Of a DNA stretch of 64,000 nucleotides, positions 13,762-58,936 are shown one piece after another. Position numbers and translations under genes: made by a program. This DNA is from a virus (taxonomy: Duplodnaviria; Caudoviricetes), in the IMG/VR virus record IMGVR_UViG_3300021387_000147, one strand, 5' to 3'. The notes below the pieces were generated by a model. It was not told the origin of the DNA. It did no database searches and was given only the letters and a program-made list of their open reading frames with translations. Numbering within the stretch: position 1 is the first letter of the stretch; every line of letters starts with the position of its first letter.

Positions 13762-14763
13762 TTATGCTATTTCAAAGAATCCTAATGGAGATTCCAATCT
13801 TATCTGTTCTCTACAATCATCCCATTCTTCTTTATAAGATGAATACAAAGAATCAGCATTCAAAGAACCACCGCCTGCAATTGATAAAGTATACTTACGC
13901 AATGCATTAGTCCATATCATACCTGCTCTTGCAACTACCATACGTCTAAAGATTACATCATTAAATAACTTACTTGACTTCTGTCTCTTGTATACTTCCA
14001 TCAATCCTCTTACAGGATGGTCAGGTTGAGGCCATACAGATAATTCCTTTTCTTTCTCATTATATCTTACGGTATATGATTCACCGAAATCCATCTTAGC
14101 CTGTTCCAACCATACAAGTGCAGCATTCCAATGACCTAGAACATCACCAAATCCACCAGCATTACTATAACAAGAACCTGTAAAGGAACTACCCATACTC
14201 ATTACTGTGTTATACAAAGCATTGTGTGGTAGAGTAAACAAATCATTGATTGTTCCCATCCAATCTGAAACTTGGAAATCTACAATAGACTCTAATTCAT
14301 CACAGATTTTATAGTGTGATTTTCCTGGTACTAAGTCCATAACAAGATAATCTCTATAATTACCTTCTCTGAAATAATACTTCCACATGTATTTAACTGT
14401 ATCAGCAATAATGAAATTCAATTGCTGATCTGAAATTTCAATACAAATTACTGGAGCACCTAACATCATCTTAATGTAGTTTCTCATTTGAGCTACATTC
14501 TGAATGTTCATCGCATCCATAAACTCATCCCTAACAGGAGGTTTAAATGGAGGATGTGGAGGTGCAGGTGGATGAGGTGGAATTATATCAGGTTTTGGTC
14601 CTGTTCCTGGCCATGGTCCATCTGCTGGAGGGAATGGTCCTCTTATTTCATTTCCTGGAAGCATACCATCCATTGGAGGATGCATTGGAAACATTCCACC
14701 TGGAGGTGGAGGAGGTTTTGGAAATGGTCCTTTCTTAGTAATTTCTTGTGTTATATTAGCCAT
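13762..14763 (-). CDS. neck protein (T4 gp13-like) with Pro-rich N-terminal extension
   Basis: YIKMMLGAPVICIEISDQQL, W...L.KY....AGG.SLN...LY. Confidence 0.85.
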   Translation of the reverse strand: MANITQEITKKGPFPKPPPPPGGMFPMHPPMDGMLPGNEIRGPFPPADGPWPGTGPKPDIIPPHPPAPPHPPFKPPVRDEFMDAMNIQNVAQMRNYIKMMLGAPVICIEISDQQLNFIIADTVKYMWKYYFREGNYRDYLVMDLVPGKSHYKICDELESIVDFQVSDWMGTINDLFTLPHNALYNTVMSMGSSFTGSCYSNAGGFGDVLGHWNAALVWLEQAKMDFGESYTVRYNEKEKELSVWPQPDHPVRGLMEVYKRQKSSKLFNDVIFRRMVVARAGMIWTNALRKYTLSIAGGGSLNADSLYSSYKEEWDDCREQIRLESPLGFFEIA

Positions 14764-14784: not shown

Positions 14785-14809
14785 AAAAAAGATGGTATTA
14801 ACCATCTTT
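14785..14809 (-). terminator. rho-independent terminator ending the early small-gene array
   Basis: AAAGATGGT/ACCATCTTT stem with T-run. Confidence 0.65.
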
Positions 14810-15164
14810 ATTTCTTTTTCTTAGGAGCTCTCTTCCTTTCTGTTGTAATTTTCTTTTGCAACTTCTCATTAGCCTCTTCCATACTCATTGTTTCTAAGGC
14901 TGATTTCTGTATAATTGCTTTAGGCTTATTCTTCTCAATATATTCTTTATCCTCATCATATTCTTGTGGAGTTTCAAATTTTCTCCAATAAGATACTCTG
15001 TAGATATTACCAATCTGTTGAGACATTGCTAAGAAATTCTTTTTACATTTCTCCTTAAATGCTTGTGCTTCCTTTTCTGTAGCAAACTCTCTATAAGTCG
15101 TATCCTCACGAGGGAATGCTAACCACTTTGGAGCATATTTGCTCACATATTCTTTATTTGCCAT
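14808..15164 (-). CDS. basic hypothetical protein
   Basis: 118-aa Lys-rich ORF, translationally coupled (TAATG). Confidence 0.65.
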   Translation of the reverse strand: MANKEYVSKYAPKWLAFPREDTTYREFATEKEAQAFKEKCKKNFLAMSQQIGNIYRVSYWRKFETPQEYDEDKEYIEKNKPKAIIQKSALETMSMEEANEKLQKKITTERKRAPKKKK

Positions 15165-15538
15165 TAGAACTTCTCCTTACAAATGTTTTGAATTTGTCTT
15201 CTTTTAATTTCAGCTTTCAATTTACGAATATAATCAACTATTGATTGTAAACGATTTACAAGCTTCTTAGGTTTTTTGTAATAATTATATCTATCGTCCA
15301 TCAAAATAAAATACTTCATAACTCCTTCAGCATTTCTTTTTTGAGCCATTTTAGGATGATATACCTTACATTCACCATTCGTTTGACATGAAGCAATTAA
15401 CTTATGACGTGCATTATCATTGTCAACATAAATTCCAATAGTCTCATCCCATGGAGCTATAGAAAAAGTAGTAAAACCAAACTTTTCTGCTATTTGTTTA
15501 AATTCCACTTGAGTCATGTATATGCTCCTGTAAAGCAA
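15164..15538 (-). CDS. array protein with shared C-terminal tag (soluble type)
   Basis: N-term FKQIAEKFGF; C-term KRRQIQNICKEKF; real start probably the second Met. Confidence 0.7.
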   Translation of the reverse strand: MLYRSIYMTQVEFKQIAEKFGFTTFSIAPWDETIGIYVDNDNARHKLIASCQTNGECKVYHPKMAQKRNAEGVMKYFILMDDRYNYYKKPKKLVNRLQSIVDYIRKLKAEIKRRQIQNICKEKF

Positions 15539-15986
15539 TATTCTTTATTTGTGCTTTCTTATAATATCTTGTTCTCTTCTTATATAAATCTTCCAAATGG
15601 TCGACCATACTTTTAAAGTTATGATATTGTCTTAATTTCAAATTCTTATAGAAAACATCATATCTCCACAGTTTATGTTTCTTATACCAATGATAAAATT
15701 CTTTATATGTTTTACAATATTTTTTATAAATAAGTATTTTAAAATCATCATCCTCTCTTATGTAGATATATGGAACACTATCAAAAGTTAGAGCAGTCTC
15801 AAAAAAATTAGAACTGATCATATCATCAACATGTGCTAAAGGACATAATTCTTCTAGCTTTAATTTAATTAGATATAAATCATGTTCATTAAAACTTGTT
15901 TCTTCTTTAATTCTATAATCACATTCAAGTCTTATAGCCCAAATAAAAACAAATACAGCAATAGGTAAAACAGCTATTATAAACAT
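15498..15986 (-). CDS. array protein with N-terminal TM helix and shared C-terminal tag
   Basis: Hydrophobic N-terminus; C-term KKAQIKNIALQE. Confidence 0.7.
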   Translation of the reverse strand: MFIIAVLPIAVFVFIWAIRLECDYRIKEETSFNEHDLYLIKLKLEELCPLAHVDDMISSNFFETALTFDSVPYIYIREDDDFKILIYKKYCKTYKEFYHWYKKHKLWRYDVFYKNLKLRQYHNFKSMVDHLEDLYKKRTRYYKKAQIKNIALQEHIHDSSGI

Positions 15987-16327
15987 TATTCATCTTGTCC
16001 TATTGATTTAATTAATCTTAATTTATATTGTTTCTTCCAAAATAATGTGTCTTTTTCAACTCTTTTCAAATGATTTTTAAGTGCTTCTTTTGAAGCCAAT
16101 GTTCTTCCATTACCTCTTGTACAAATGGCGCCCATACAATCTAAACGAATATCATAGCATCCACCTCTTTTAGTTTCAGCATCAAGCCATGCAATCAAAT
16201 TATCTGCAGCTCTTTCATTATTCAAATAGATAGCTACATAATTTGAATATTCACCATCTGTATCATAACCAAATTCTTTAGCTACTTCTATGAATTCTTC
16301 TTTAGTCAATTGTTTCGCCATCTGCAA
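15986..16327 (-). CDS. array protein with shared C-terminal tag (soluble type)
   Basis: FIEVAKEFGY; KLRLIKSIGQDE. Confidence 0.7.
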   Translation of the reverse strand: MQMAKQLTKEEFIEVAKEFGYDTDGEYSNYVAIYLNNERAADNLIAWLDAETKRGGCYDIRLDCMGAICTRGNGRTLASKEALKNHLKRVEKDTLFWKKQYKLRLIKSIGQDE

Positions 16328-16637
16328 TACTCTTAATTTGATTTAATTTTATAATACGTTTATAAATGTGTATTCTTTCTGTGACTTCATCAAGCCAATC
16401 AATAAATTCTTTTTGTGTCTTAACTACTTTTGAATTTTGTTCTGTCTCTATAAGATTGATAGCTCTATAAAATATTGGGTTATGTAATTCTACACCATAA
16501 GAACAACATATCGCTAAACACATTTCATTTGTATAAATGTTATCAATGTGTATACGATAATCTCCCATTGATTCTAATAAAGGATTTAATTCAAATCCAT
16601 ATTGTTTAGCTATATTTTTAAAATCTGAGGCTTTCAT
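16302..16637 (-). CDS. array protein with shared C-terminal tag (soluble type)
   Basis: FKNIAKQYGF; KLNQIKSIADGE. Confidence 0.7.
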   Translation of the reverse strand: MKASDFKNIAKQYGFELNPLLESMGDYRIHIDNIYTNEMCLAICCSYGVELHNPIFYRAINLIETEQNSKVVKTQKEFIDWLDEVTERIHIYKRIIKLNQIKSIADGETID

Positions 16638-17110
16638 ACATCTTCCTTACATATATTCTTAATAGCTTCAAGTTTCTTTAACTTATTAAGTTTAGTTTCA
16701 AATGTAGGAACTTGTTTAATAAATTCTTCTAATGTTCGAATACGTGCAAATTCTTTTTGCTTCCATAGTGGATATTCATCAACCTTAACAATAAAGAAAT
16801 ACTTATCTTTAGATTTATGATATTTTAACCATTCTTTATATGTTTTAAAATTGTTCTTGTATAACATACAAAAGAAACGAGTATCATTTAGTCCATAACC
16901 ATGATTTAATCTAGAAATTGTAAAATAATCTTTGCCTTTACAACTTACTTCTAAACCACATCTACGAATAGACCTATCAATCATTGCAACAATCTTTGTA
17001 CCTTCTTCATCACTAACAGTAATTGGCATTGACATTAAACGTAAGCGTCCTAAAAGATAACTTACATAAAAAATTGCCATAATACCAAATATAATTGCTA
17101 AAGGTTCCAT
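16634..17110 (-). CDS. array protein with N-terminal TM helix and shared C-terminal tag
   Basis: Hydrophobic N-terminus; KLEAIKNICKEDV. Confidence 0.7.
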   Translation of the reverse strand: MEPLAIIFGIMAIFYVSYLLGRLRLMSMPITVSDEEGTKIVAMIDRSIRRCGLEVSCKGKDYFTISRLNHGYGLNDTRFFCMLYKNNFKTYKEWLKYHKSKDKYFFIVKVDEYPLWKQKEFARIRTLEEFIKQVPTFETKLNKLKKLEAIKNICKEDV

Positions 17111-17595
17111 TAGTCTTCCTCTTTACAAATACTTTGAATTTTCATTAATTTTTCTTTTCTAACTGCAAGCTTCATTTGATTTGGTATATCATTAAACATT
17201 TGATAAAAATCATCATACTTAGCAACAGGATTCAAATATTGAAATGCTCTTGCTTCAAATACATACGATAAACTAAATCTCAAATCTGGCATTTTTCTTT
17301 TCTTTAAGAAATCAAAAAAACTTGTATAAGTCAATCTATCAAAAGTATAATATAATTTATCTTCAATATAAAACGCATCTTTATATATTGCAAAGTTCAT
17401 TTCATATCCATATTTAGTTTCTACTTTCTTTTTAATTGTATCAAAAAGAAATTTCCTTGTTTGTTGGTCAAAATATGGTAGCTCATCCTTAATAAGATTA
17501 TAATGAATTACTTGGTATATCATCCAAAGAACGCATAACGTTAATGCGGTCATCAAAATAAAAGCTACACCTATACCAATAATCGGAACTAACAT
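17110..17595 (-). CDS. array protein with N-terminal TM helix and shared C-terminal tag
   Basis: Hydrophobic N-terminus; KLMKIQSICKEED. Confidence 0.7.
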   Translation of the reverse strand: MLVPIIGIGVAFILMTALTLCVLWMIYQVIHYNLIKDELPYFDQQTRKFLFDTIKKKVETKYGYEMNFAIYKDAFYIEDKLYYTFDRLTYTSFFDFLKKRKMPDLRFSLSYVFEARAFQYLNPVAKYDDFYQMFNDIPNQMKLAVRKEKLMKIQSICKEED

Positions 17596-18062
17596 ATATC
17601 CTTTTCTTTACAAATACTTTCAATCAATAATTTCTTATAAATTTTCTTTCTATCTCTAATAAGTCTTGGAAATTCTTTTTCAAGCTTAAGAATATCAGTG
17701 TACACTTCAAATAATGTTTCATCAGGATATGGACCAGATATGTATTCATTATACGGCATATAAAAAACTGAATAGTAAATATTGGATTTATGCTTAAGAA
17801 AATGATCTTTAAAAGAGTAAGGGTTTTTCTTAAGATAAATAGCCATCTCACCAATTTCTACTTCCTTATAAGACCATCTACTATAGAATGGACCATATTT
17901 AACCATATTATACTTTTGATACAGTCCATGCATGTGCAAATAAAACCAATGCCATTCCTTTTCTGTAATATGATTTTTATCATCTTTATAATACTTCCAA
18001 ACCATACACAGTACACCGCATATAGCAAGAAAATATAATGGTGCAAGCATAACATTAATCAT
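17589..18062 (-). CDS. array protein with N-terminal TM helix and shared C-terminal tag
   Basis: Hydrophobic N-terminus; KKLLIESICKEKD. Confidence 0.7.
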   Translation of the reverse strand: MINVMLAPLYFLAICGVLCMVWKYYKDDKNHITEKEWHWFYLHMHGLYQKYNMVKYGPFYSRWSYKEVEIGEMAIYLKKNPYSFKDHFLKHKSNIYYSVFYMPYNEYISGPYPDETLFEVYTDILKLEKEFPRLIRDRKKIYKKLLIESICKEKDIC

Positions 18063-18408
18063 CTTTACAAATACTCTCTATTTGAAATTTCTTAATATCT
18101 TTCTTAATAAATTTTACCAATCTTAAATACAATTCTAAATTCTTTTCAAATTCAGATTCATCTTCAGAATCAAAATACGTTGAAGAGCAACCAGTATCAA
18201 TTGCTCCATTTGTATAAATTTCAATAGCATTCTTTAATTTAATCTGATTACAATTAGTGTTTAATTGCGTAATAACTCTATGATGATCTTCAGGTAAAGA
18301 AAAACAAATAAAATGTTTTCCACCAATAATCTGTTTACCAACTTCCTCTTCAGTCAGTTGTTCCAAACCATGTTTCTTACAGATCTCAATAAATTTTTCT
18401 TCACTCAT
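18055..18408 (-). CDS. array protein with shared C-terminal tag (soluble type)
   Basis: FIEICKKHGL; KKFQIESICKDD. Confidence 0.7.
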   Translation of the reverse strand: MSEEKFIEICKKHGLEQLTEEEVGKQIIGGKHFICFSLPEDHHRVITQLNTNCNQIKLKNAIEIYTNGAIDTGCSSTYFDSEDESEFEKNLELYLRLVKFIKKDIKKFQIESICKDD

Positions 18409-18833
18409 ACTGGATCCTTACAAATGTTTCTAATACGACGGAGCTTTTCAGTTATATTAAAAAGCTTAACTTCCTTTGTAATGCTTAACAATTCATCTTT
18501 CAAAATTGCAGGGTCAGTAACAGTAATTCCATTTATTGCAGTTGACAAATAACATTGACCATCGTAATTAACAATTTTTATTTTGTTATAGAGAACACAT
18601 TCGAATAAAGCATTTCTTAAATGCTTTTTATTATAATCAATAGTGAAGACAATTACAATATTTGCTTCAGATGCAGTAGTATATGTCGGTGTATTTAAAG
18701 AAACTACATACTTTTTGCTTAAACTTTTAGTAGTGTCACATTTATCAAAAAGATCTGGCTCATAACCACATTCATGACAAATGTTCAAAAACTTTTCTTC
18801 ATTTAATGTATCTTCTTTAACGTGAGAAAACAT
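18405..18833 (-). CDS. array protein with shared C-terminal tag (soluble type)
   Basis: FLNICHECGY; KLRRIRNICKDPV. Confidence 0.7.
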   Translation of the reverse strand: MFSHVKEDTLNEEKFLNICHECGYEPDLFDKCDTTKSLSKKYVVSLNTPTYTTASEANIVIVFTIDYNKKHLRNALFECVLYNKIKIVNYDGQCYLSTAINGITVTDPAILKDELLSITKEVKLFNITEKLRRIRNICKDPV

Positions 18834-18834
18834 A

Positions 18835-19554
18835 TTATTCCTTACAAATGTGTTTAATTTCGTAGAGCTTTCTTAAGCGAGCAAACTTCTGTTGTAATTC
18901 ATTATTCTTTTGAATTTGCTTTTCAATTTCTTCGTATGCCTTCTTAAATCCATCTACATTCAAACAGTTATCAGTAAACTTAACTGGATATTCTGCGATA
19001 TATTCCTTTGTTGTAGGAAATGCTATTTGATATGCATATTTTTCATTACCTTCATAGAAATAAAGAATACGCAATTTCTGCAAAGTCAGTGTCAATGTAT
19101 GCACAACTTTGTTTGTATACTTTCTTGTCACTGCATCTTTAACAGTTTCAATCGCAGACGTATACTTGATAAATGGATGCTGTGCTTGATGAGCCCAAGG
19201 TTCATTACAATAATGATAAATGAAAGATGTGCCATCACAATTATGATTGAAAAAACTATTGCGCCATAAATCTTCAAGCGTATACTTTTCAAGATAATCA
19301 TCATCTTTAAGTGCATCCATCATGTTAATAGTATATTTCTTTTGAATACCCATAAATGCACCATTTGACCAATTAGCACAGATCTTATTTTCACTTGGAT
19401 GTGCAGTAGAACGTGCCAACTCAGTTCGCACATAAATCTTCAAACATTCAATCATCGCTTGTTTCAATGCATCAGTCATATTCTTTCTATCCTCAATATC
19501 TTGCACAACCTTATTAAACTGTTCAGATACTGACTTCATAAGCAATTCTGTCAT
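18835..19554 (-). CDS. array protein with shared C-terminal tag
   Basis: 239 aa; KLYEIKHICKE. Confidence 0.7.
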   Translation of the reverse strand: MTELLMKSVSEQFNKVVQDIEDRKNMTDALKQAMIECLKIYVRTELARSTAHPSENKICANWSNGAFMGIQKKYTINMMDALKDDDYLEKYTLEDLWRNSFFNHNCDGTSFIYHYCNEPWAHQAQHPFIKYTSAIETVKDAVTRKYTNKVVHTLTLTLQKLRILYFYEGNEKYAYQIAFPTTKEYIAEYPVKFTDNCLNVDGFKKAYEEIEKQIQKNNELQQKFARLRKLYEIKHICKE

Positions 19555-20108
19555 TAATCTTCATCCTTTCCAATAGAATGGATGGCGGCATATTTTGCAT
19601 TTCGAACAGAAGCCTTAATCATTGCTTCATTCTTTTCCTGCGTATCTCGAATTAAATCAACTGCCAACTTCCAATCTTCAAAATCTACTTTCTTAGAAAA
19701 ATCAAAATCATATCTTTCACGATAACCACCACATGCAAGCTGAACAGGAAGTTTCTTTTCATCTACATACTGATAAATGAAATTGGGAACCATCATTGTC
19801 AAAGAAATTTGCCATGGATGCCAATTCTGTCCACTTGCTCTCCAAACACTGCAAGTAATATCCTTATAAGTATACAAATTCCAATAAGTATTATCAGCAA
19901 TTTCTAAATAATAGGCTTTGCGGATTTTTTCGAACTTTTTAATAGGGTCGAAAATCACGTGATAGTCATGATGAAAATCACCATTCAAAATCAGCTTTTC
20001 TTCAGACGCTTCATAACGGTCGATAATATACAACTGTTTGGAATGCTCCTTAGACAAATACTGGAGCATATCCACGATTTTCATTTGAGCATCCCATTCG
20101 TTATACAT
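19554..20108 (-). CDS. array protein with shared C-terminal tag
   Basis: 184 aa; KYAAIHSIGKDED. Confidence 0.7.
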   Translation of the reverse strand: MYNEWDAQMKIVDMLQYLSKEHSKQLYIIDRYEASEEKLILNGDFHHDYHVIFDPIKKFEKIRKAYYLEIADNTYWNLYTYKDITCSVWRASGQNWHPWQISLTMMVPNFIYQYVDEKKLPVQLACGGYRERYDFDFSKKVDFEDWKLAVDLIRDTQEKNEAMIKASVRNAKYAAIHSIGKDED

Positions 20109-20278
20109 TATTCAACTTCTCTTCCGTCAATTTCAGTGTCAGCCAAGAAAGAACCAAACTTCTTGATAATCTTCTGACGATTTTCCTCGGCCTTAGCCTT
20201 GTCATGATACACGCCCCAAATCATACGGCGTTCGGGCTTGTCCATAGTGTTATAAGTCAAAACATATACCTTTTCCAT
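20108..20278 (-). CDS. small hypothetical protein (56 aa, below ORF-track cutoff)
   Basis: GAGGT SD; MEKVYVLTY...IWGVYHDKAKAEE, a common small phage-protein pattern; coupled to next gene by TAATG. Confidence 0.65.
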   Translation of the reverse strand: MEKVYVLTYNTMDKPERRMIWGVYHDKAKAEENRQKIIKKFGSFLADTEIDGREVE

Positions 20279-20292
20279 AATTTACCTCTTAA

Positions 20293-20478
20293 TTATTCAG
20301 CAGGCCAAATTGCTTCAATGTGATTAATTCCTACGACAATGGTCGTTCCACTAATTCGCAAATCTTTACAATTAACGAATTTTACGAAATGTTCATCCAT
20401 GGCTTCAATAGTACCGGTAAAACGAGCACCCATGTTAAACTTGCCATGCAACCAGTATCTTTTTCCAATTTCAAGCAT
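20293..20478 (-). CDS. small beta-barrel-like hypothetical protein
   Basis: 61 aa, first gene after an early promoter, GAGGT SD. Confidence 0.65.
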   Translation of the reverse strand: MLEIGKRYWLHGKFNMGARFTGTIEAMDEHFVKFVNCKDLRISGTTIVVGINHIEAIWPAE

Positions 20479-20480
20479 CT

Positions 20481-20593
20481 TAACCTCTTTTATTTTAACA
20501 AGTAAAATATACTAAAAAAGAGGTTTCTTGGAAACCCCTTTTAATGTAAAATAAAGTTTACAGAACTATAAAATATGTAAATTATAGTTTACT
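20481..20593 (-). promoter_or_regulatory. early promoter cassette copy 1 with palindromic boxes
   Basis: GGGTTTCCA-N17-TATATT; boxes TGTAAA-N6-TTTAC at 20545-20562 and 20576-20593. Confidence 0.75.
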
Positions 20594-21017: not shown

Positions 21018-21228
21018 GTCTTATTCCTTTTTTGTATTGTTTCCAAGTTGGATGTTTATCTTGATGTGTTAAATGAAAATTCTGACAGAGCTGACAAAAA
21101 TAAACATTCTTCTCATGTCGATTATTATTTCCATTTAACTGATTAATTCTTTGACAGCGATATAATGCAAACTCTGCATCTATCTTTGTCTTATAACAAA
21201 TTTTTCCAGAAGGGCATTCAGTCATCAA
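21010..21228 (-). CDS. small Zn-binding phage protein
   Basis: CPSGKICY...A...YFCQLCQNFHLT motif. Confidence 0.65.
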   Translation of the reverse strand: MMTECPSGKICYKTKIDAEFALYRCQRINQLNGNNNRHEKNVYFCQLCQNFHLTHQDKHPTWKQYKKGIRHG

Positions 21229-21674
21229 TCCCCCTTTACAGCCAAAGTTAAAAGTTCAAATTTCTTTTTGTATTTCTTGTTTGTTTCTTCTTCCTCATGA
21301 ATTCGTTGAGCCATCTTACGGAACTTTTCCTTAGTACTTTCCCATGCAGCGACAGAATATGTACCATCTTCCGTAATTGTTTCCACATTATCTAACTTGA
21401 AACAAAGGTATTTCTTTTTGTCCTCTTCCTCAAGCGCAAAATGGCCAGACGTTCCAAACTTGATGCAATACGGATAAGTTAATTCACCATGCTTATAGGC
21501 GAAATACATACGTATCTGCCAATATTTGTCTTCCTTACTGAAAGAATAATCTCTCTTTAATTTGTCTTTACTAATGGATTCATCCATGCTGAATTCCTTA
21601 ATCATATCGATAAAGTCATCAACAATGGTAAGCCAACTTACGCGTTGAAAACGCTTCTTAAAATTTTCAAACAT
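21225..21674 (-). CDS. hypothetical protein
   Basis: 149-aa ORF in a coupled operon. Confidence 0.65.
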   Translation of the reverse strand: MFENFKKRFQRVSWLTIVDDFIDMIKEFSMDESISKDKLKRDYSFSKEDKYWQIRMYFAYKHGELTYPYCIKFGTSGHFALEEEDKKKYLCFKLDNVETITEDGTYSVAAWESTKEKFRKMAQRIHEEEETNKKYKKKFELLTLAVKGD

Positions 21675-22371: not shown

Positions 22372-22502
22372 TTAACCTCTTTTATTTTAACAAGTAAAAT
22401 ATAAGTATATTTGGATTCTTTGGAAACCCTGTTTTTCGTAAAATAATGTTTACAAAAGGCCTTGGAATGTAAACATTTTGTTTACGTAAACTAAAATTTA
22501 CA
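22372..22502 (-). promoter_or_regulatory. early promoter cassette copy 2 with palindromic boxes
   Basis: GGGTTTCCA-N17-TATATT; leader identical to copy 1; boxes at 22437-22454, 22468-22486 and 22485-22502. Confidence 0.75.
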
Positions 22503-22616: not shown

Positions 22617-23042
22617 TTAGTCTTCATTACATATTTTATAAATCTTATTGGCAAGAGCTACATTTGTCATATCTACTGGGCCTCTAAAACTTTCACCATT
22701 TATTTCCAACCATTGAATATATGGAGCTCCTGATAGTTTTTCATATAGATTACTTGTACTAAAAGTAATTTCAATTTTATTTTTATCAATATTACCTTTA
22801 ACTATAACACGCCAATCTACTGTTGCTTTTCCAGTAGCTTTTATATTAGTCATATTTAAAGTTTCAGCACAGAAATTCTTAATGTATTCTTTAATCTTTT
22901 TATCTGTTGAATTTGCTGGTCTATCGTAATCTATATCTGGTGCACCACACATACTTGATGAAGAACCATAACAACCTTCATTCAATTGGTGAATTACATA
23001 ACCATGTTCAATTAATTCTTTTTTAGCTTCTAGTAAATTCAT
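22617..23042 (-). CDS. putative internal head protein
   Basis: N-term MNLLEAKKELIEHGY...LNE, shared with 25649-26728 and 47533-47796. Confidence 0.5.
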   Translation of the reverse strand: MNLLEAKKELIEHGYVIHQLNEGCYGSSSSMCGAPDIDYDRPANSTDKKIKEYIKNFCAETLNMTNIKATGKATVDWRVIVKGNIDKNKIEITFSTSNLYEKLSGAPYIQWLEINGESFRGPVDMTNVALANKIYKICNED

Positions 23043-25648: not shown

Positions 25649-26728
25649 TTATTCATGAATGTATTGTTCAATAAATGCATACACATACTTTGTAGGAATA
25701 TCTGTAATTGGTCCATCACTTGTTTGAATACGCACTGCTTCTGGATGTAACTTAGCAGTCTTAACTAATTCTGCTTTTCCAAAAGGTGTTAACCAAGTAA
25801 TATATTCCCAAGGAGTTTCTTCTTTACGAGCATCTACACGAACATGATTTGTAAATTTATCTTTCTTTACAGCTTGATGCAATGCATCTCTTGCATTTTC
25901 ATCTGAGCCTTTATAAATGTTCGATACCTTAGAATTCTTTACTCCAGATTTATTTATAATTACGAAATCTGTAGGTTCACCATGGACGAATTTCTGTGCA
26001 TAACACTGTAGGCCTAAAATCTTAAATTGGACAGAACGGTTTTTATATTTTTCAAACCATATTTCTGCAGGCTTCTTAGGCTTTTCAGCTTTATGTTCTG
26101 CATCCTTTGCACCAAGTACTTTTACTTCTGCATATTCATCAGCACGAGTCCAAGCATGCTTCAATTCATCTACCTTATAATCAGGAATAGTTGCAGTTAT
26201 CTCATAAAAACCTTCTTCACCATCATGGTCATCACGCAATTTAAAACTAATTTCATTTCTTATAGATGAACCATTATAATCAGCTTTTAATTTATCAACC
26301 ATTGCTTGTGCTGCGTCATAAGAAGCAGATCTTAAATTATCAAACCAATCTGTTTCATACTTATAACCAGTAAAGTGATATGTTTGAATGGTAACTAACT
26401 TAACTGTCTTTGGAGCTTTCTTAGCTGGCTTAGGAGTTTGAGCTGGAGTAGAGGTTCCATCTGAAGGTCCCATCTTACCAACCATCTTCTGAATTTTCTT
26501 AATTGCAGAAGCGTTTTTCATTTTACTTGCTATATCATTTAAAATAGCAGAATACTTTGCCAAATTCTTTGCATTACCAGATTTACGTGCTGTATATGCA
26601 CCATTCATTGCTTTAGTCAAAGTGACTTTATCTTCTGGTGATAATTCATCAAAATCTGGAGTTGCCTTCCATTCATTAAGAAGATAACCATGTTCTTCTA
26701 ATTCGGTAATAGCTTCATTCAATTCCAT
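25649..26728 (-). CDS. putative internal head protein
   Basis: N-term MELNEAITELEEHGYLLNE; basic Ala/Lys/Pro linker. Confidence 0.55.
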   Translation of the reverse strand: MELNEAITELEEHGYLLNEWKATPDFDELSPEDKVTLTKAMNGAYTARKSGNAKNLAKYSAILNDIASKMKNASAIKKIQKMVGKMGPSDGTSTPAQTPKPAKKAPKTVKLVTIQTYHFTGYKYETDWFDNLRSASYDAAQAMVDKLKADYNGSSIRNEISFKLRDDHDGEEGFYEITATIPDYKVDELKHAWTRADEYAEVKVLGAKDAEHKAEKPKKPAEIWFEKYKNRSVQFKILGLQCYAQKFVHGEPTDFVIINKSGVKNSKVSNIYKGSDENARDALHQAVKKDKFTNHVRVDARKEETPWEYITWLTPFGKAELVKTAKLHPEAVRIQTSDGPITDIPTKYVYAFIEQYIHE

Positions 26729-41613: not shown

Positions 41614-43126
41614 TATAGTTTATTTAGAAAAAGTAAATGAAACAGTAGTTAAAGTAGATTGTAATGACGAAGTAGCACATAATTTATATTGTCGTTATTC
41701 TGCTTATTCTCCTGGTTATATTTTCAATCCTAGATATAAGATGCACGTCTGGGATGGTATGATACACATGTATACTCCAAGAAGTAGTACCATTCCTATG
41801 GGTCTTTTACCTGACGTTATTCGTTATTTTGATAAAGAAGGTATTGAATATAAATTATCTAATTTCACCAATATGATTGATGAAAATATAGATGATTGGT
41901 TTGAACAACAAATGAAAGCAAATATGGTTAATGCACCATATCCTTTACGTGATTATCAGAAAGAAGCTATTTACGCAGCATTAAAGAATAAGAAAGGTAT
42001 TCTACTTTCTTGTACTTCTTCTGGTAAATCCTTAATGATTTTCAATATCATTGTGACTTTATTGACACAAAAGAAATTAAAGAAGACTATGATTGTTGTT
42101 CCTAACAAAACCCTAGTTGAACAGTTGTATAAAGATTTTATTGACTATGGATGGAAGAACATTGATATTTGTGTCACAAAATTATATGATGAAGAAAAGA
42201 AGAATGTAGATTTTAGAAAGCCAGTATTGATTACAACTTGGCAATCAATCTATAAGAAAGAAAAATCTTTCTTTGAAGATTATCAAGCAGTAATATGTGA
42301 TGAAGCTCACCAGAGTAAAGCACAAGCATTATCTACAATCTTAAAATCATGTACAAATGCAAGTTATAAGATTGGTACTACTGGTACTTTATCTACAGAA
42401 GCATCAGATAATTTGACTATTCAGAGTATTTTAGGAGATATTCTATTTGAACTTAGAAGTAAGGATTTGATTGAAAAAGGTTATTTAACAAAGATTACTA
42501 TTGCAAATATCTTAGTCAAATATCCTATGGAGTTTATTAAGACTCATAAGAATTTGCAATATCCTGAAGAAGTTAGATATGTAGAAGAATATCCTGAACG
42601 TAATAAAGCGCTAGATTTAATCCTGGACCATACTCCAGAGACTCATAATATCTTATTGCTAGTAAACCATCGTGATCATGAAAAAAGCCTCCAGGAATAC
42701 CTGAAAGCGAAATATCCTAATAAGAAAGTAAGTATTATTGATGGCTCTGTAAAAGCAAAAGAAAGAGAAAGTATTAGAACTGGAATTGAAAATGAAGATG
42801 GAACTATTTTGTTAGCAACTTTTGGAACTATGTCTACTGGTGTTAACATTCCTAAACTTCATGCAGTTGTATTATATTCTAATTCTAAGAGTAAGATTAA
42901 GGTTTTACAGAGTATTGGACGTGGATTGAGAAAGCATAATACAAAGTCTCATGTTATCTTATATGATATTATTGATGATTTGTCTTATTTTACACCAAGA
43001 GGTAAACATAAGAAGAATTACTTATATCAGCATTGGGAAGAAAGAACAAAGTATTATGTTGAACAAGAATTCCCACAAATTACAACTAATTTAAAGTTGG
43101 AGTATCATCCTGAGGATCAGGAATAA
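41606..43126 (+). CDS. uvsW: UvsW-like SF2 DNA helicase
   Basis: WDG.I, LRDYQ, TSSGKS (Walker A), DEAH, GTTGT, STGVNI, LQSIGRGLR. Confidence 0.93.
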   Translation: MSDIVYLEKVNETVVKVDCNDEVAHNLYCRYSAYSPGYIFNPRYKMHVWDGMIHMYTPRSSTIPMGLLPDVIRYFDKEGIEYKLSNFTNMIDENIDDWFEQQMKANMVNAPYPLRDYQKEAIYAALKNKKGILLSCTSSGKSLMIFNIIVTLLTQKKLKKTMIVVPNKTLVEQLYKDFIDYGWKNIDICVTKLYDEEKKNVDFRKPVLITTWQSIYKKEKSFFEDYQAVICDEAHQSKAQALSTILKSCTNASYKIGTTGTLSTEASDNLTIQSILGDILFELRSKDLIEKGYLTKITIANILVKYPMEFIKTHKNLQYPEEVRYVEEYPERNKALDLILDHTPETHNILLLVNHRDHEKSLQEYLKAKYPNKKVSIIDGSVKAKERESIRTGIENEDGTILLATFGTMSTGVNIPKLHAVVLYSNSKSKIKVLQSIGRGLRKHNTKSHVILYDIIDDLSYFTPRGKHKKNYLYQHWEERTKYYVEQEFPQITTNLKLEYHPEDQE

Positions 43127-43448
43127 ACTCTTGATCTGCTATATGTTTGATAGCTTCTAATTTGTGATATTTTTTATTTCTATGATATATTTTAGTTATA
43201 TCATAGATTTTTTTTGTAAATTTTTCTTTGTCCCAATTGAATGTATCAATATTGGGTTTATTTGATAATAAATCTACGTAGATAAAGCGGACTACTATAT
43301 TATCTTTATTTTCACAGATGAAACCAAATGTATCATCTTTTTCATATCCAAAATAAAAATAATTGTCACCAAATGGATATACATTTATACCCAATGTTTT
43401 TATATAATCAATTACTTCTTGACTTGCATTAGAGAAAAAGACGTCCAT
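43086..43448 (-). CDS. isolated member of the C-terminal-tag family
   Basis: KYHKLEAIKHIADQE near the C-terminus; TATAAATA-N4-ATG start. Confidence 0.65.
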   Translation of the reverse strand: MDVFFSNASQEVIDYIKTLGINVYPFGDNYFYFGYEKDDTFGFICENKDNIVVRFIYVDLLSNKPNIDTFNWDKEKFTKKIYDITKIYHRNKKYHKLEAIKHIADQEFIPDPQDDTPTLN

Positions 43449-43985: not shown

Positions 43986-45290
43986 TTACCATACTAGATC
44001 TGTAGACATGCCGTCTGAGAATAGACCATTGAACTTCAATAGACGATAGTAGTTTTCAGCTCCCAACATATTTGTTGCGAATCCATAACGAGACATAATA
44101 CCAACACGTGGTGAGAAGTCGTTTGGATCAACTGCCTGGTTGATAACACCAGTTACGTATGGGCAGAATACTACACCAGCATCAGACAATGAAGAACCCT
44201 TATATGCTAATAGAACTTCACCGTTATCAGTTGTACCATCTTCAGATACAGCGTACTGATCACAGTATACCTTGATTGAATTGTTTAGAGTACCGATTTC
44301 TGGAGTGACTAGAGAACCGTTAACGTCGTGCTGAATCTTGTTGAAGAATGGAGCAGCTGACTGTAGAACTGTAGCCATATCTGGAGAAACTACTGCGATG
44401 TTTGCAGCGCCTCTACGAGTAGCGGTACGAATATCGTTTGCAGCCTTTTGGATCTGTGTAACGATGTTTGAATATCTTTCCTGAGACCAACGTCCGATGA
44501 TACCATCGTAATTAGACTTATAATCTTCACCAGAAGCCTTATTGTAAATCTTTGGTGTACATAGAGACTTACAACGACCGATTGTTTCACGGTCCATTTC
44601 TGCGGTCATTTCTGCCTGAAGAACGTTAATCATTTCAGACATCATTTCAATACCCTGCATTGCCTTAATATCAGCTGCAGATTCTAGAGAGAATGATGCT
44701 GCTAGTTTACGTGTCTTAGCAACGATAGACTGTCTTGACAACATTAGGCCTAGTTCTGGCATCTTACGATCACCAGTCTTTGTGATTCCCCAACCTTCAC
44801 CGGTCTGAGTATCAACACCAGTACCTGCATCGTATGCTCCATCAGTGTTCTGTGTAGAACCTGTGAAACCAGAGAAACGAGGAACTGCCTTCCATGCTGC
44901 TTCAACTAATTCTGTTGGATCGTTTGTCTTATAAATGTAACGTAGTGCGAATGCCAAACCAACTGGACCATTCAATGGCTGAACACCAACCAATACGTTA
45001 GCGAATAATTGTGGGAATACTCTACGTACTAGTGCCATAGAAATAGGTGCAAAAACACCCTTTGCGTCACCACCGTGTGGAATACCCTGGTCTAGACCAA
45101 GAGGTGCACCAACACCCTGTGTGAAATCTTCTGTTAGAAGATTTTCAGAAAGGTTGCCCTTATTCTGGTTTTCTAGTAGACGAGCAGTGTTCATACGAAC
45201 ATTATAATCTTTAATTGAAGAAACAGACAAAGAACCTGGTGCCTTTGACCATTTATCCAATAATGATGCTTGTGCTTGACTAATTTTCAT
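43986..45290 (-). CDS. major capsid protein (T4 gp23-like); start re-called to 45290
   Basis: ARLLENQ, LVRRVFP.L.A...VGVQP..GP.GL.FALRY, AKTRKL, CPYV, DP..F.P.VG.MSRY; AGGAG SD before MKISQ. Confidence 0.95.
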   Translation of the reverse strand: MKISQAQASLLDKWSKAPGSLSVSSIKDYNVRMNTARLLENQNKGNLSENLLTEDFTQGVGAPLGLDQGIPHGGDAKGVFAPISMALVRRVFPQLFANVLVGVQPLNGPVGLAFALRYIYKTNDPTELVEAAWKAVPRFSGFTGSTQNTDGAYDAGTGVDTQTGEGWGITKTGDRKMPELGLMLSRQSIVAKTRKLAASFSLESAADIKAMQGIEMMSEMINVLQAEMTAEMDRETIGRCKSLCTPKIYNKASGEDYKSNYDGIIGRWSQERYSNIVTQIQKAANDIRTATRRGAANIAVVSPDMATVLQSAAPFFNKIQHDVNGSLVTPEIGTLNNSIKVYCDQYAVSEDGTTDNGEVLLAYKGSSLSDAGVVFCPYVTGVINQAVDPNDFSPRVGIMSRYGFATNMLGAENYYRLLKFNGLFSDGMSTDLVW

Positions 45291-45334
45291 TTGTTTATCT
45301 CCTATAAATAAATTATTTTTTAATTTACTTATTA

Positions 45335-45342
45335 TATTTATA
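45335..45342 (-). promoter_or_regulatory. T4-type late promoter for MCP
   Basis: TATAAATA about 45 nt upstream of the MCP start. Confidence 0.7.
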
Positions 45343-45368
45343 TAATTAACCAATTATTTTTTGCAAAA

Positions 45369-47532: not shown

Positions 47533-47796
47533 TTAGTCAAGAAAAGAATGAGATTCCAAGAAATTATTTAGCAATTCTTCATTTGTTTCTGATAAGTATG
47601 CAATAATTTCCTTAGCAAAATCATCACCGTTAATTTCTCCAGCATCGATAGCGTTAATGACAGTTGTTGCCATGTCTAAAGATTCTGCATCGTCATCGAA
47701 ATCATCGATGCCTTCTAGAATAACATCGTAGCCAGCGTCATTTAAAACTTTCTTTGCTTCATCAATTTCTTGCATTGTTTCGCTGAAATTCTTCAT
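47533..47796 (-). CDS. small acidic putative prohead core/internal protein
   Basis: MKNFSE...IDEAKKVLNDAGY..ILE; located downstream of the portal, where T4 has gp67. Confidence 0.5.
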   Translation of the reverse strand: MKNFSETMQEIDEAKKVLNDAGYDVILEGIDDFDDDAESLDMATTVINAIDAGEINGDDFAKEIIAYLSETNEELLNNFLESHSFLD

Positions 47797-57963: not shown

Positions 57964-58076
57964 TAACCTCTTTAATTTTTACATGTATAATATAAGTATT
58001 TTGGAATGATTTGTAAACCCTGGTTATGTAAAAAGAAGTTTACAAAGCGCTCCTGGAATGTAAAATATAGTTTACA
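57964..58076 (-). promoter_or_regulatory. early promoter cassette copy 3 with palindromic boxes
   Basis: GGGTTTACA-N17-TATATT; boxes TGTAAA-N6-TTTACA at 58027-58044 and 58059-58076. Confidence 0.75.
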
Positions 58077-58099: not shown

Positions 58100-58936
58100 A
58101 TGATAGTTTGTAAACTTTGTGGCAAGGAATTTTCGACTTGGTTTCGTTTTGGTCTTCATTTAAGATTGGACCATGATATGACAACACATGCATATTATGA
58201 TAAATTCTTTAAAAAAGAAGATGAAGGAAAATGCGCAATTTGTGGAAAACCTACTAATTTCGTCGATGCAGTAAAAGGATATAGAGAAACATGCTCACCT
58301 GCATGTCGTAATACTTTACGTGCTCAACAAATGATGGGACAAACATTTAAATGTGAATGTGCAGAATGTGGAAAAGAATTTATATCAAATCAGGATGCAG
58401 GTTTAATTAAAAAGTTAGGTCACCATTTAAATGAAATTCATAATATGTCTTTGAAAGAGTATTATGACAAATACAAAAAGAAAGAAGGTGAAGGTATATG
58501 TCCAATTTGTGGAAAAGAAACTCAATTCTTAGGTTATACTGCAGGATATAATCCTACATGTAGTTTTGAATGTGCAAATAAATTACAGAAACAAAATGGA
58601 ACTGACCAAGGTTCTAGAGATGCTGAGATAATAAAACAAGAAGCAATCAATAAACAAATACGAAATGAAGAAGCTAAACGAATTCAAGATTATTATAAGT
58701 CAATGGTAGATGATGACGAATGTAATAATTTTCCTGAAAAAGAGAAAGTTATTTCAGAAGCATGGGGAGCATTGAGTAAAAATCCACGAAGAAAATTACA
58801 AGATAGAATTTATACCGAAGTAGATACATGTAATTATGATATGCCTGTAGAACATGAATCAACTTCAATGAATCAACGTAGAAGATACTCCTATTTAGAT
58901 GAAGAATCAACTCCAGCATCCGTGGAATGGTTATAA
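58100..58936 (+). CDS. duplicated zinc-finger protein
   Basis: Two copies of CxxCGKEF...H....H.M....YYDK..KK..EG.C.ICGK.T.F.....GY..TCS..C. Confidence 0.75.
   Translation: MIVCKLCGKEFSTWFRFGLHLRLDHDMTTHAYYDKFFKKEDEGKCAICGKPTNFVDAVKGYRETCSPACRNTLRAQQMMGQTFKCECAECGKEFISNQDAGLIKKLGHHLNEIHNMSLKEYYDKYKKKEGEGICPICGKETQFLGYTAGYNPTCSFECANKLQKQNGTDQGSRDAEIIKQEAINKQIRNEEAKRIQDYYKSMVDDDECNNFPEKEKVISEAWGALSKNPRRKLQDRIYTEVDTCNYDMPVEHESTSMNQRRRYSYLDEESTPASVEWL

Follow-up and report, generated by a model that had tools for sequence, protein, structure and literature searches.

A selected C-terminal helix tip shared by diverged small proteins of a T4-like gut jumbo phage, and its counterparts in relatives

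Adaptor libraries in which a variable recognition domain is joined to a constant short docking motif are known from the SspB/ClpS-type protease adaptors and the poxvirus ankyrin-PRANC proteins. A locus that may follow the same layout, by analogy only and with no sequence similarity to those adaptors, lies at 15164-20108 of a 64,000-nucleotide viral DNA stretch (IMG/VR record IMGVR_UViG_3300021387_000147; "the window" hereafter means this whole stretch). It is an array of eleven small open reading frames (ORFs A1 to A11; Table 1) that end in a common tag with the core K-x3-I-x2-I. Among phages, the closest analogy is with the T4 internal proteins Ip1-3, which have only a short N-terminal packaging leader in common and of which each inhibits a different GmrSD (PMC12373910); the shared leader of the T-even internal proteins is a capsid-targeting sequence (PMC9958956, PMC12373910). 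The array proteins resemble them in being small, variable, non-essential and polymorphic between strains, and in sharing one short peptide at a polymorphic locus. The ~10-residue N-terminal capsid-targeting leader is absent from the array, in which the N termini are a domain helix (five proteins), a transmembrane helix (four) or unique. The shared element is instead C-terminal, lies inside a 32-residue helix and is also carried by membrane-anchored proteins. It further differs from the Ip1-3 leader in its numbers (12 to more than 100 per genome), in its lineage-specific versions and in that most bodies have one fold. A second point of comparison is provided by the hyperplastic regions of RB49 and phi1, which contain PeSL cassettes (PMC2839356).

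The eleven ORFs are consecutive and translationally coupled on the minus strand (gaps of −20 to +1 nucleotides [nt]), as the first-pass annotation of this DNA had described. The core motif occurs within the last 30 residues of all of them, compared with 1 of the 71 other window ORFs, and this single exception (43086-43448) bears the array's own tag. In 20,000 shuffles of the tails, 0.68 of the 11 carried the core on average and never more than 5, so the enrichment is real and far above chance. The longer pattern that the annotation had assigned to every member, ending in an acidic residue, is matched literally by nine of the eleven, and by nothing in the 18,578 residues of the other ORFs; in A2 and A4 the acidic residue is shifted one position later. 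Comparison of alleles (at most 13 per gene, with the window as the sole reference) gave proportions of synonymous (pS) and nonsynonymous (pN) differences of 0.224 and 0.045 in the tags (pN/pS 0.20) and of 0.196 and 0.093 in the bodies (0.48). The tag codons include TCT, TCA and AGT for serine, from both codon blocks, and all three isoleucine codons, while cysteine is always TGT. The final C-K-E codons supply the Shine-Dalgarno (SD) sequence of the next gene. Since low pS is confined to the residues after the tag (0.073), this overlap accounts solely for the final C-K-E, in line with the caveat already attached to the annotation that it could not explain the K...I..I core. The tag is thus selected at the protein level, and neither of the two objections foreseen by the annotation, a motif no commoner than expected and conservation at the DNA level only, describes it.

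The array varied among relatives in gene content while keeping its gene order. Several losses trace to crossover from one tag to another: the tags of A8 and A7 recombined with loss of A7 in four assemblies (L006-L009), those of A7 and A6 with loss of A6 in L010, and those of A9 and A7 with loss of both A8 and A7 in L180 and L181. The remaining deletions occurred at short microhomologies, and premature stops were also present. Deletions, stops and allele swaps affected A1-A3, A6-A8 and A11, and A4 and A11 each have two deep allele types; A5 was present in every relative retrieved with A5 as the query. In the bin G009, a deletion reaching as far as the gp13 gene removes the hairpin behind the array together with the array's 3' part. 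The array genes are accessory and dispensable, and the tag DNA also serves as a clean excision site. Dispensable ORFan runs behind repeated promoter/stem-loop-type cassettes, with gene loss at short homologies, are likewise features of the RB49/phi1 regions, and a repeated intergenic cassette with a putative promoter and stem-loop is present upstream of the ORFans here. The breakpoints inside the array (the region for which they were examined) fall in coding tags or short microhomologies and not in intergenic cassettes, in contrast to the PeSL regions, for which no shared protein motif is described in the available part of the source (PMC2839356).

Soluble subfamily A (A1, A3, A4, A8 and A9) has a common N-terminal helix motif, and subfamily B (A2, A5, A6 and A7) a hydrophobic N-terminal segment, while the bodies of A10 and A11 could not be aligned to the remaining members. 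After trimming of the tags, the HHalign probability was 94% for A1 and A3 and 93% for A1 and A4, with A8 and A9 aligning more weakly. The "little overall similarity" first reported was hence an overstatement, since these values and the shared N-terminal features suggest that the array proteins are largely diverged paralogues. In the predicted structure of A8 (predicted local distance difference test [pLDDT] 87), two short helices and six strands precede a helix at residues 84-115 ending in the tag; in that of A5 (pLDDT 81), a transmembrane helix (2-27) is followed by a second helix, by five strands into which another helix is inserted, and by a last helix at 127-157, again ending in the tag. 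The soluble and the anchored model therefore agree in a helix, a beta-meander and a ~32-residue helix tipped by the tag. As the sequence profiles of the two subfamilies align over the last 19 residues only, their kinship is read from this modelled topology. A hydrophobic register at −19, −15, −12 and −8 before the lysine is common to 12 of 12 tagged window proteins, including A10 and A11, from which it follows that the tag is the tip of a fixed-length helix rather than a free 10-mer. The tail segment of every member is basic, with a charge of +3 to +6, as first described, while its amphipathicity proved variable (hydrophobic moment 0.05-0.45) and the tag is the end of the helix rather than an element following it. 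Extra residues lie beyond the tag in A2 (~9) and in 43086-43448 (~16). A complex prediction for A5 (29-158) with A8 scored 0.05 and was uninformative either way.

The system is not confined to the eleven genes that had been flagged, since the tag was also found outside the operon, genome-wide and across a clade. The window comes from a T4-like gut jumbo phage, with a gp23-like major capsid protein (43986-45353; ~33% identity to cyanophage gp23) and a gp13 neck gene that follows the array, and the stretch was found in sequencing runs from animal gut, sheep gut and wastewater. It was compared with near-identical phage contigs in two bins (capsid 99 to 100% identical), with three complete larger relatives (G002, G003 and G004; 411-424 kb, capsid 76-78%), with two complete smaller ones (G005 and G006; 243-248 kb, capsid 57-58%; only G005 was scanned for tags) and with G013 (L249-L259), a 210-kb sister fragment that is 56% complete, has 414 ORFs and shares 60 genes with G003. 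At least 10 further window-type tags occur among 130 ORFs of 103-289 residues in the near-identical contigs, with none in internal controls. A scan at 15 bits with the window-type tail matrix picked out 12 ORFs in the window, and G002-G005 gave no match. The 149-residue ORF at 21225-21674 (minus strand) ends in a degenerate tag, with leucine for both isoleucines, that falls under the matrix threshold.

The larger relatives have terminal helices of their own, both arrayed and dispersed (38-43 in G003, 13 in G002 and 12 in G004), and none were found in G005. Their tail matrices matched 38, 13 and 12 ORFs, respectively, each in its own genome only, with 0-1 matches in internal controls. The window-type tag also occurs at the position of 43086 in a sister phage (capsid 91%), and the positional orthologue of 43086-43448 carries a window-type tag in L016 and a G003-type tag in G003; co-variation of this tail with the lineage holds for the window, L016 and G003 and is ambiguous for G002 and G004. 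Homologous bodies with different tips, each of the type of its own lineage, were also found, namely A5 and L177:7052-7546 (HHalign 93%, E = 3e-7) and 43086-43448 and G003:277194 (HHalign 85%).

In G013, 114 of the 414 ORFs (28%) end in a D-F helix, which is basic at −15 and −8, hydrophobic at −4 and then reads D-F. This register equals that of the window position for position, and the two tail profiles align weakly (E = 9e-4). The tagged bodies form 105 BLAST components, among them all-helical proteins of 65-71 residues and membrane proteins, and the tail is therefore portable. About 90 of the 114 ORFs are coupled to the next gene and 24 are uncoupled. The notion of modular variable domains on a shared tail thus holds for the tail in the sister fragment, while in the array itself most bodies are diverged paralogues with a single fold. 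The tail profiles of G002, G003 and G004 match each other and not the window/D-F group; with these two groups unlinked, a single origin of all helical tags is not established. Besides its helical tag, G002 has four additional tag classes, each on a separate set of small variable proteins: P-K-G-I-L-K-I-P (~19), E-V-E-F-M-D-I (15, always terminal) and two classes with four members apiece. The first of these may resemble the GroES mobile loop.

These observations led us to a model, on which our own judgment is evenly divided, in which many variable host-interaction domains are docked, each by the tip of its helix, on a single partner specific to the lineage. The array would be one cluster within a genome-wide accessory protein family, each member consisting of a fast-evolving domain (mostly a helix and a beta-meander) followed by the ~32-residue helix. 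The first half of this helix would pack against the domain and the tip, K-x3-I-x2-I-[CGA], would probably be free for docking. Anchored members, with the membrane anchor N-terminal and the domain probably cytoplasmic, would act at the membrane. The variable domains may bind different host or rival-phage molecules, the shared tip gathering them at one hub; tips would be alike within a lineage and drift jointly between lineages because all members must fit one pocket. Near-invariant tips on dissimilar bodies, dispersed genes and lineage-wise change make one partner per lineage the simplest account, in which binding by the tip, the single partner and the action of the bodies on the host are all three inferred. 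More tentatively, the clade may run a modular plug-in system, with tens to more than 100 rapidly diversifying host-interaction domains per genome, lineage-specific docking peptides for one phage or host hub, and as many as five tag classes in one genome. Such a system would be a bacterial-virus counterpart of adaptor-based targeting of the E3-ligase type.

Searches for known families and folds were largely negative. A profile search of subfamily A against 1.84 billion representatives returned 17 matches, nearly all of them close relatives, and one remote match led to the D-F lineage (L177, G013). Atlas feature searches led from A4 to hypothetical viral clusters only and from A11 to sub-threshold leads only, and Foldseek against PDB and BFVD found nothing at E < 0.001. 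The structural matches fall in a class that includes YbjN and type III secretion system (T3SS) chaperones, YjbR and the MotA C-terminal domain, AcrIIA11, PsiB and Mediator subunits; among them are A5 with AcrIIA11 (9utm; Z 6.2 over 96 residues, root mean square deviation 3.0) and an atlas match to YjbR (TM-score 0.57). The order helix, beta-meander, helix is shared with YbjN/T3SS chaperones, YjbR/MotA, AcrIIA11 and PsiB (Z 5-6), whereas identity is below 20%, none of these has an extended conserved tip, and scores in this range indicate a common arrangement only; the matches say nothing on function. In the literature, searched with subscription papers mostly uncovered, we found no account of C-terminal tags common to small phage proteins.

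Several points weigh against the docking model. Neither a partner nor a host target or an anti-defence activity was identified; the lineage-specific tips across many genes agree with the expectation for a common partner. Scans with Pfam, PHROG, NCBIfam and PADLOC gave no credible family, and the fold matches (Z 5-7) are middling, non-diagnostic and of a common alpha+beta class. The tip probably projects beyond the sheet, as judged from helix length and not from coordinates. The codon comparisons share the window as reference and hence are not independent, and the own-genome matrix counts are partly circular because the matrix seeds were picked by eye. In G002 and G004, the positional orthologues of 43086 do not score best on the matrices of their own arrays. 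For the hub, the link to ClpP and GroEL discussed below draws on a small number of related genomes, with genome size as a confounder, no ClpX/ClpA-type ATPase was found in five complete genomes, and ClpP was not seen in G013, which is 56% complete.

The alternative that survives best, unlikely in our estimate but deserving real weight, is that there is no common partner. The helix would then simply be the part under the strongest constraint in an expanded paralogue fold, and the likeness of the tips would stem from duplication, SD overlap and recombination. Such an origin suits the single modelled topology of most members, with the entire helix in register, and the double use of tag DNA as a crossover site and, through its C-K-E codons, as the next gene's SD. 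It is harder to reconcile with synonymous sites that are as diverged in the tags as in the bodies, with tips kept in dispersed or uncoupled genes (43086-43448; 24 of 114 in G013), with tails on bodies unable to adopt the array fold, and with tips nearly invariant despite the loss of all BLAST similarity in the bodies. The additional, unrelated and non-helical tag classes of G002 also speak against it.

It is improbable, in our view, that the tips bind each other, forming homo- or hetero-oligomers in which anchored members bring their soluble counterparts to the inner membrane. The two kinds of member are indeed interleaved and translationally coupled. Moreover, long terminal helices often bundle, and the T3SS-chaperone/YbjN class to which the fold is weakly matched is dimeric. 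Self-pairing is disfavoured by the strongly basic tip of all members, members are lost one at a time, and among the 133 candidate-tagged ORFs of G013 just 3 have a membrane anchor.

Docking on a hub leaves the nature of the hub to be considered. ClpP and ClpS have been noted in phages, and ClpP in some jumbo phages (PMC7824862). Two ClpP are encoded by G002-G004 and by the window's phage and GroEL by G002-G004 and G013, while neither was found in G005 or G006, nor GroEL in the incomplete bin G009. Since the tagged lineages encode ClpP and/or GroEL/GroES, a protein-turnover or folding machine (a host AAA+ protease, or phage ClpP or GroEL) is the leading guess for the hub, one that we regard as rather unlikely to be right in its particulars. 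The same ClpP pairs, in the window lineage and G002-G004, together with the near-terminal position of the tag and the repeated cassette upstream, would suit a signal that marks early accessory proteins for degradation. Known C-terminal degrons need less than a fixed 30-residue register, and the tag is not always terminal (~9 and ~16 extra residues), so this role too seems improbable.

Least probable of all is a signal for virion packaging followed by co-injection, equivalent at the C terminus to the T4 capsid-targeting sequence, since the logic it shares with Ip1-3 (a short common leader, different defence enzymes inhibited) is opposed by membrane anchors in 4 of 11 members, by the more than 100 tagged species of one genome, which would be hard to package, and by a separate N-terminal leader family that seems to fit head targeting better. 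This leader, L-x-E-A-x3-L-x3-G-Y, is carried by unrelated window proteins (22617-23042, 25649-26728 and 47533-47796, minus strand), with 16 copies in G002, 5 in G003, 9 in G004 and none in G005 by pattern, and is possibly a head-targeting leader like that of T4. A membrane-targeting helix was rejected as superfluous on anchored members, and both a membrane-targeting and a DNA-binding helix because the tips of G002-G004 are acidic or neutral.

Most jumbo-phage genes are small orphans that lack a handle for study. A selected tail on up to about one-fourth of a genome's ORFs groups such orphans into one testable system, far larger in scope than the flagged array and with an inferred function, in which lineage-specific tips are built-in specificity controls. 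A common partner, if found, could give the logic of ~100 orphan genes. Should the hub prove to be a protease or a scaffold, the tags would serve as targeting tools transferable between proteins, and the bodies would supply a library of candidates for host interaction or anti-defence.

The array had been placed between an early promoter cassette and a terminator. A cassette and a terminator-like hairpin are present, and untagged ORFs lie between each of them and the array (Table 1). The cassette is a genuine 101-nt repeat with three window copies (20481-20581, 22373-22473 and 57964-58064), each combining a conserved SD with a hairpin and two GTAAAC..TTTACA boxes; it has 10 and 7 matches in the two bins with near-identical phage and 0 in controls. 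Its promoter role is presumed, and a sigma-70 scan gave no excess (47 matches versus 52 in shuffles).

Table 1. Positions of the array genes, their surroundings and related features in other genomes
Feature	Position	Strand	Description
A11	19554..20108	-	184 aa, soluble; tag codons 19595-19563; alleles in relatives of 47% and 90-98% identity
A10	18835..19554	-	239 aa (214-aa form in relatives), soluble; tag 18870-18838; body unalignable to others
A9	18405..18833	-	142 aa, soluble subfamily A; tag 18446-18414
A8	18055..18408	-	117 aa, subfamily A; tag 18093-18061; structure modelled
A7	17589..18062	-	157 aa, subfamily B, N-terminal transmembrane helix; tag 17636-17604; frequently deleted in relatives
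A6	17110..17595	-	161 aa, subfamily B; tag 17151-17119
A5	16634..17110	-	158 aa, subfamily B; tag 16675-16643; structure modelled
A4	16302..16637	-	111 aa, subfamily A; tag 16349-16317
A3	15986..16321	-	111 aa, subfamily A; tag 16024-15992; likely start 16321
A2	15498..15986	-	162 aa, subfamily B; tag 15560-15528; further residues beyond tag
A1	15164..15517	-	117 aa, subfamily A; tag 15205-15173; likely start 15517
Twelfth tagged ORF	43086..43448	-	outside array, two genes downstream of major capsid gene
Two small untagged ORFs	20108..20478	-	61 and 56 aa; head of the array's gene run, between cassette and array
Untagged ORF	14808..15164	-	118 aa; last of gene run, between array and hairpin
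Terminator-like hairpin with T-tail	14788..14809	-	precedes gp13 neck gene
gp13 neck gene	13762-14763	-	next gene after array
Repeated cassette	20481..20581	-	promoter-like boxes, hairpin, SD
G002 extra tag-class sites (L107-L126, L150)	10.7-13.8 kb, 344-352 kb, 380-400 kb, 326-328 kb
ClpP pair, GroEL, two GroES-like, IF-1-like, SPFH, M18 aminopeptidase	L222:5118-5777, L223:16851-17369; G003 83044-83787, 233678-234286, 336081-337709

Contigs from RNA runs (sheep gut) cover the array and likewise structural genes and intergenic DNA, and for this reason are no proof of array expression. Bins holding related or near-identical contigs (L185-L189) pointed to Coprovivens, Succinivibrionaceae and Methanobrevibacter as host, an inconsistent set that we read as probable mis-binning. 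The gp13 neck protein has a long proline-rich N-terminal extension, and the ORF at 58100-58936 (plus strand) contains an internal 90-nt repeat and Cys/His pairs reminiscent of zinc fingers.

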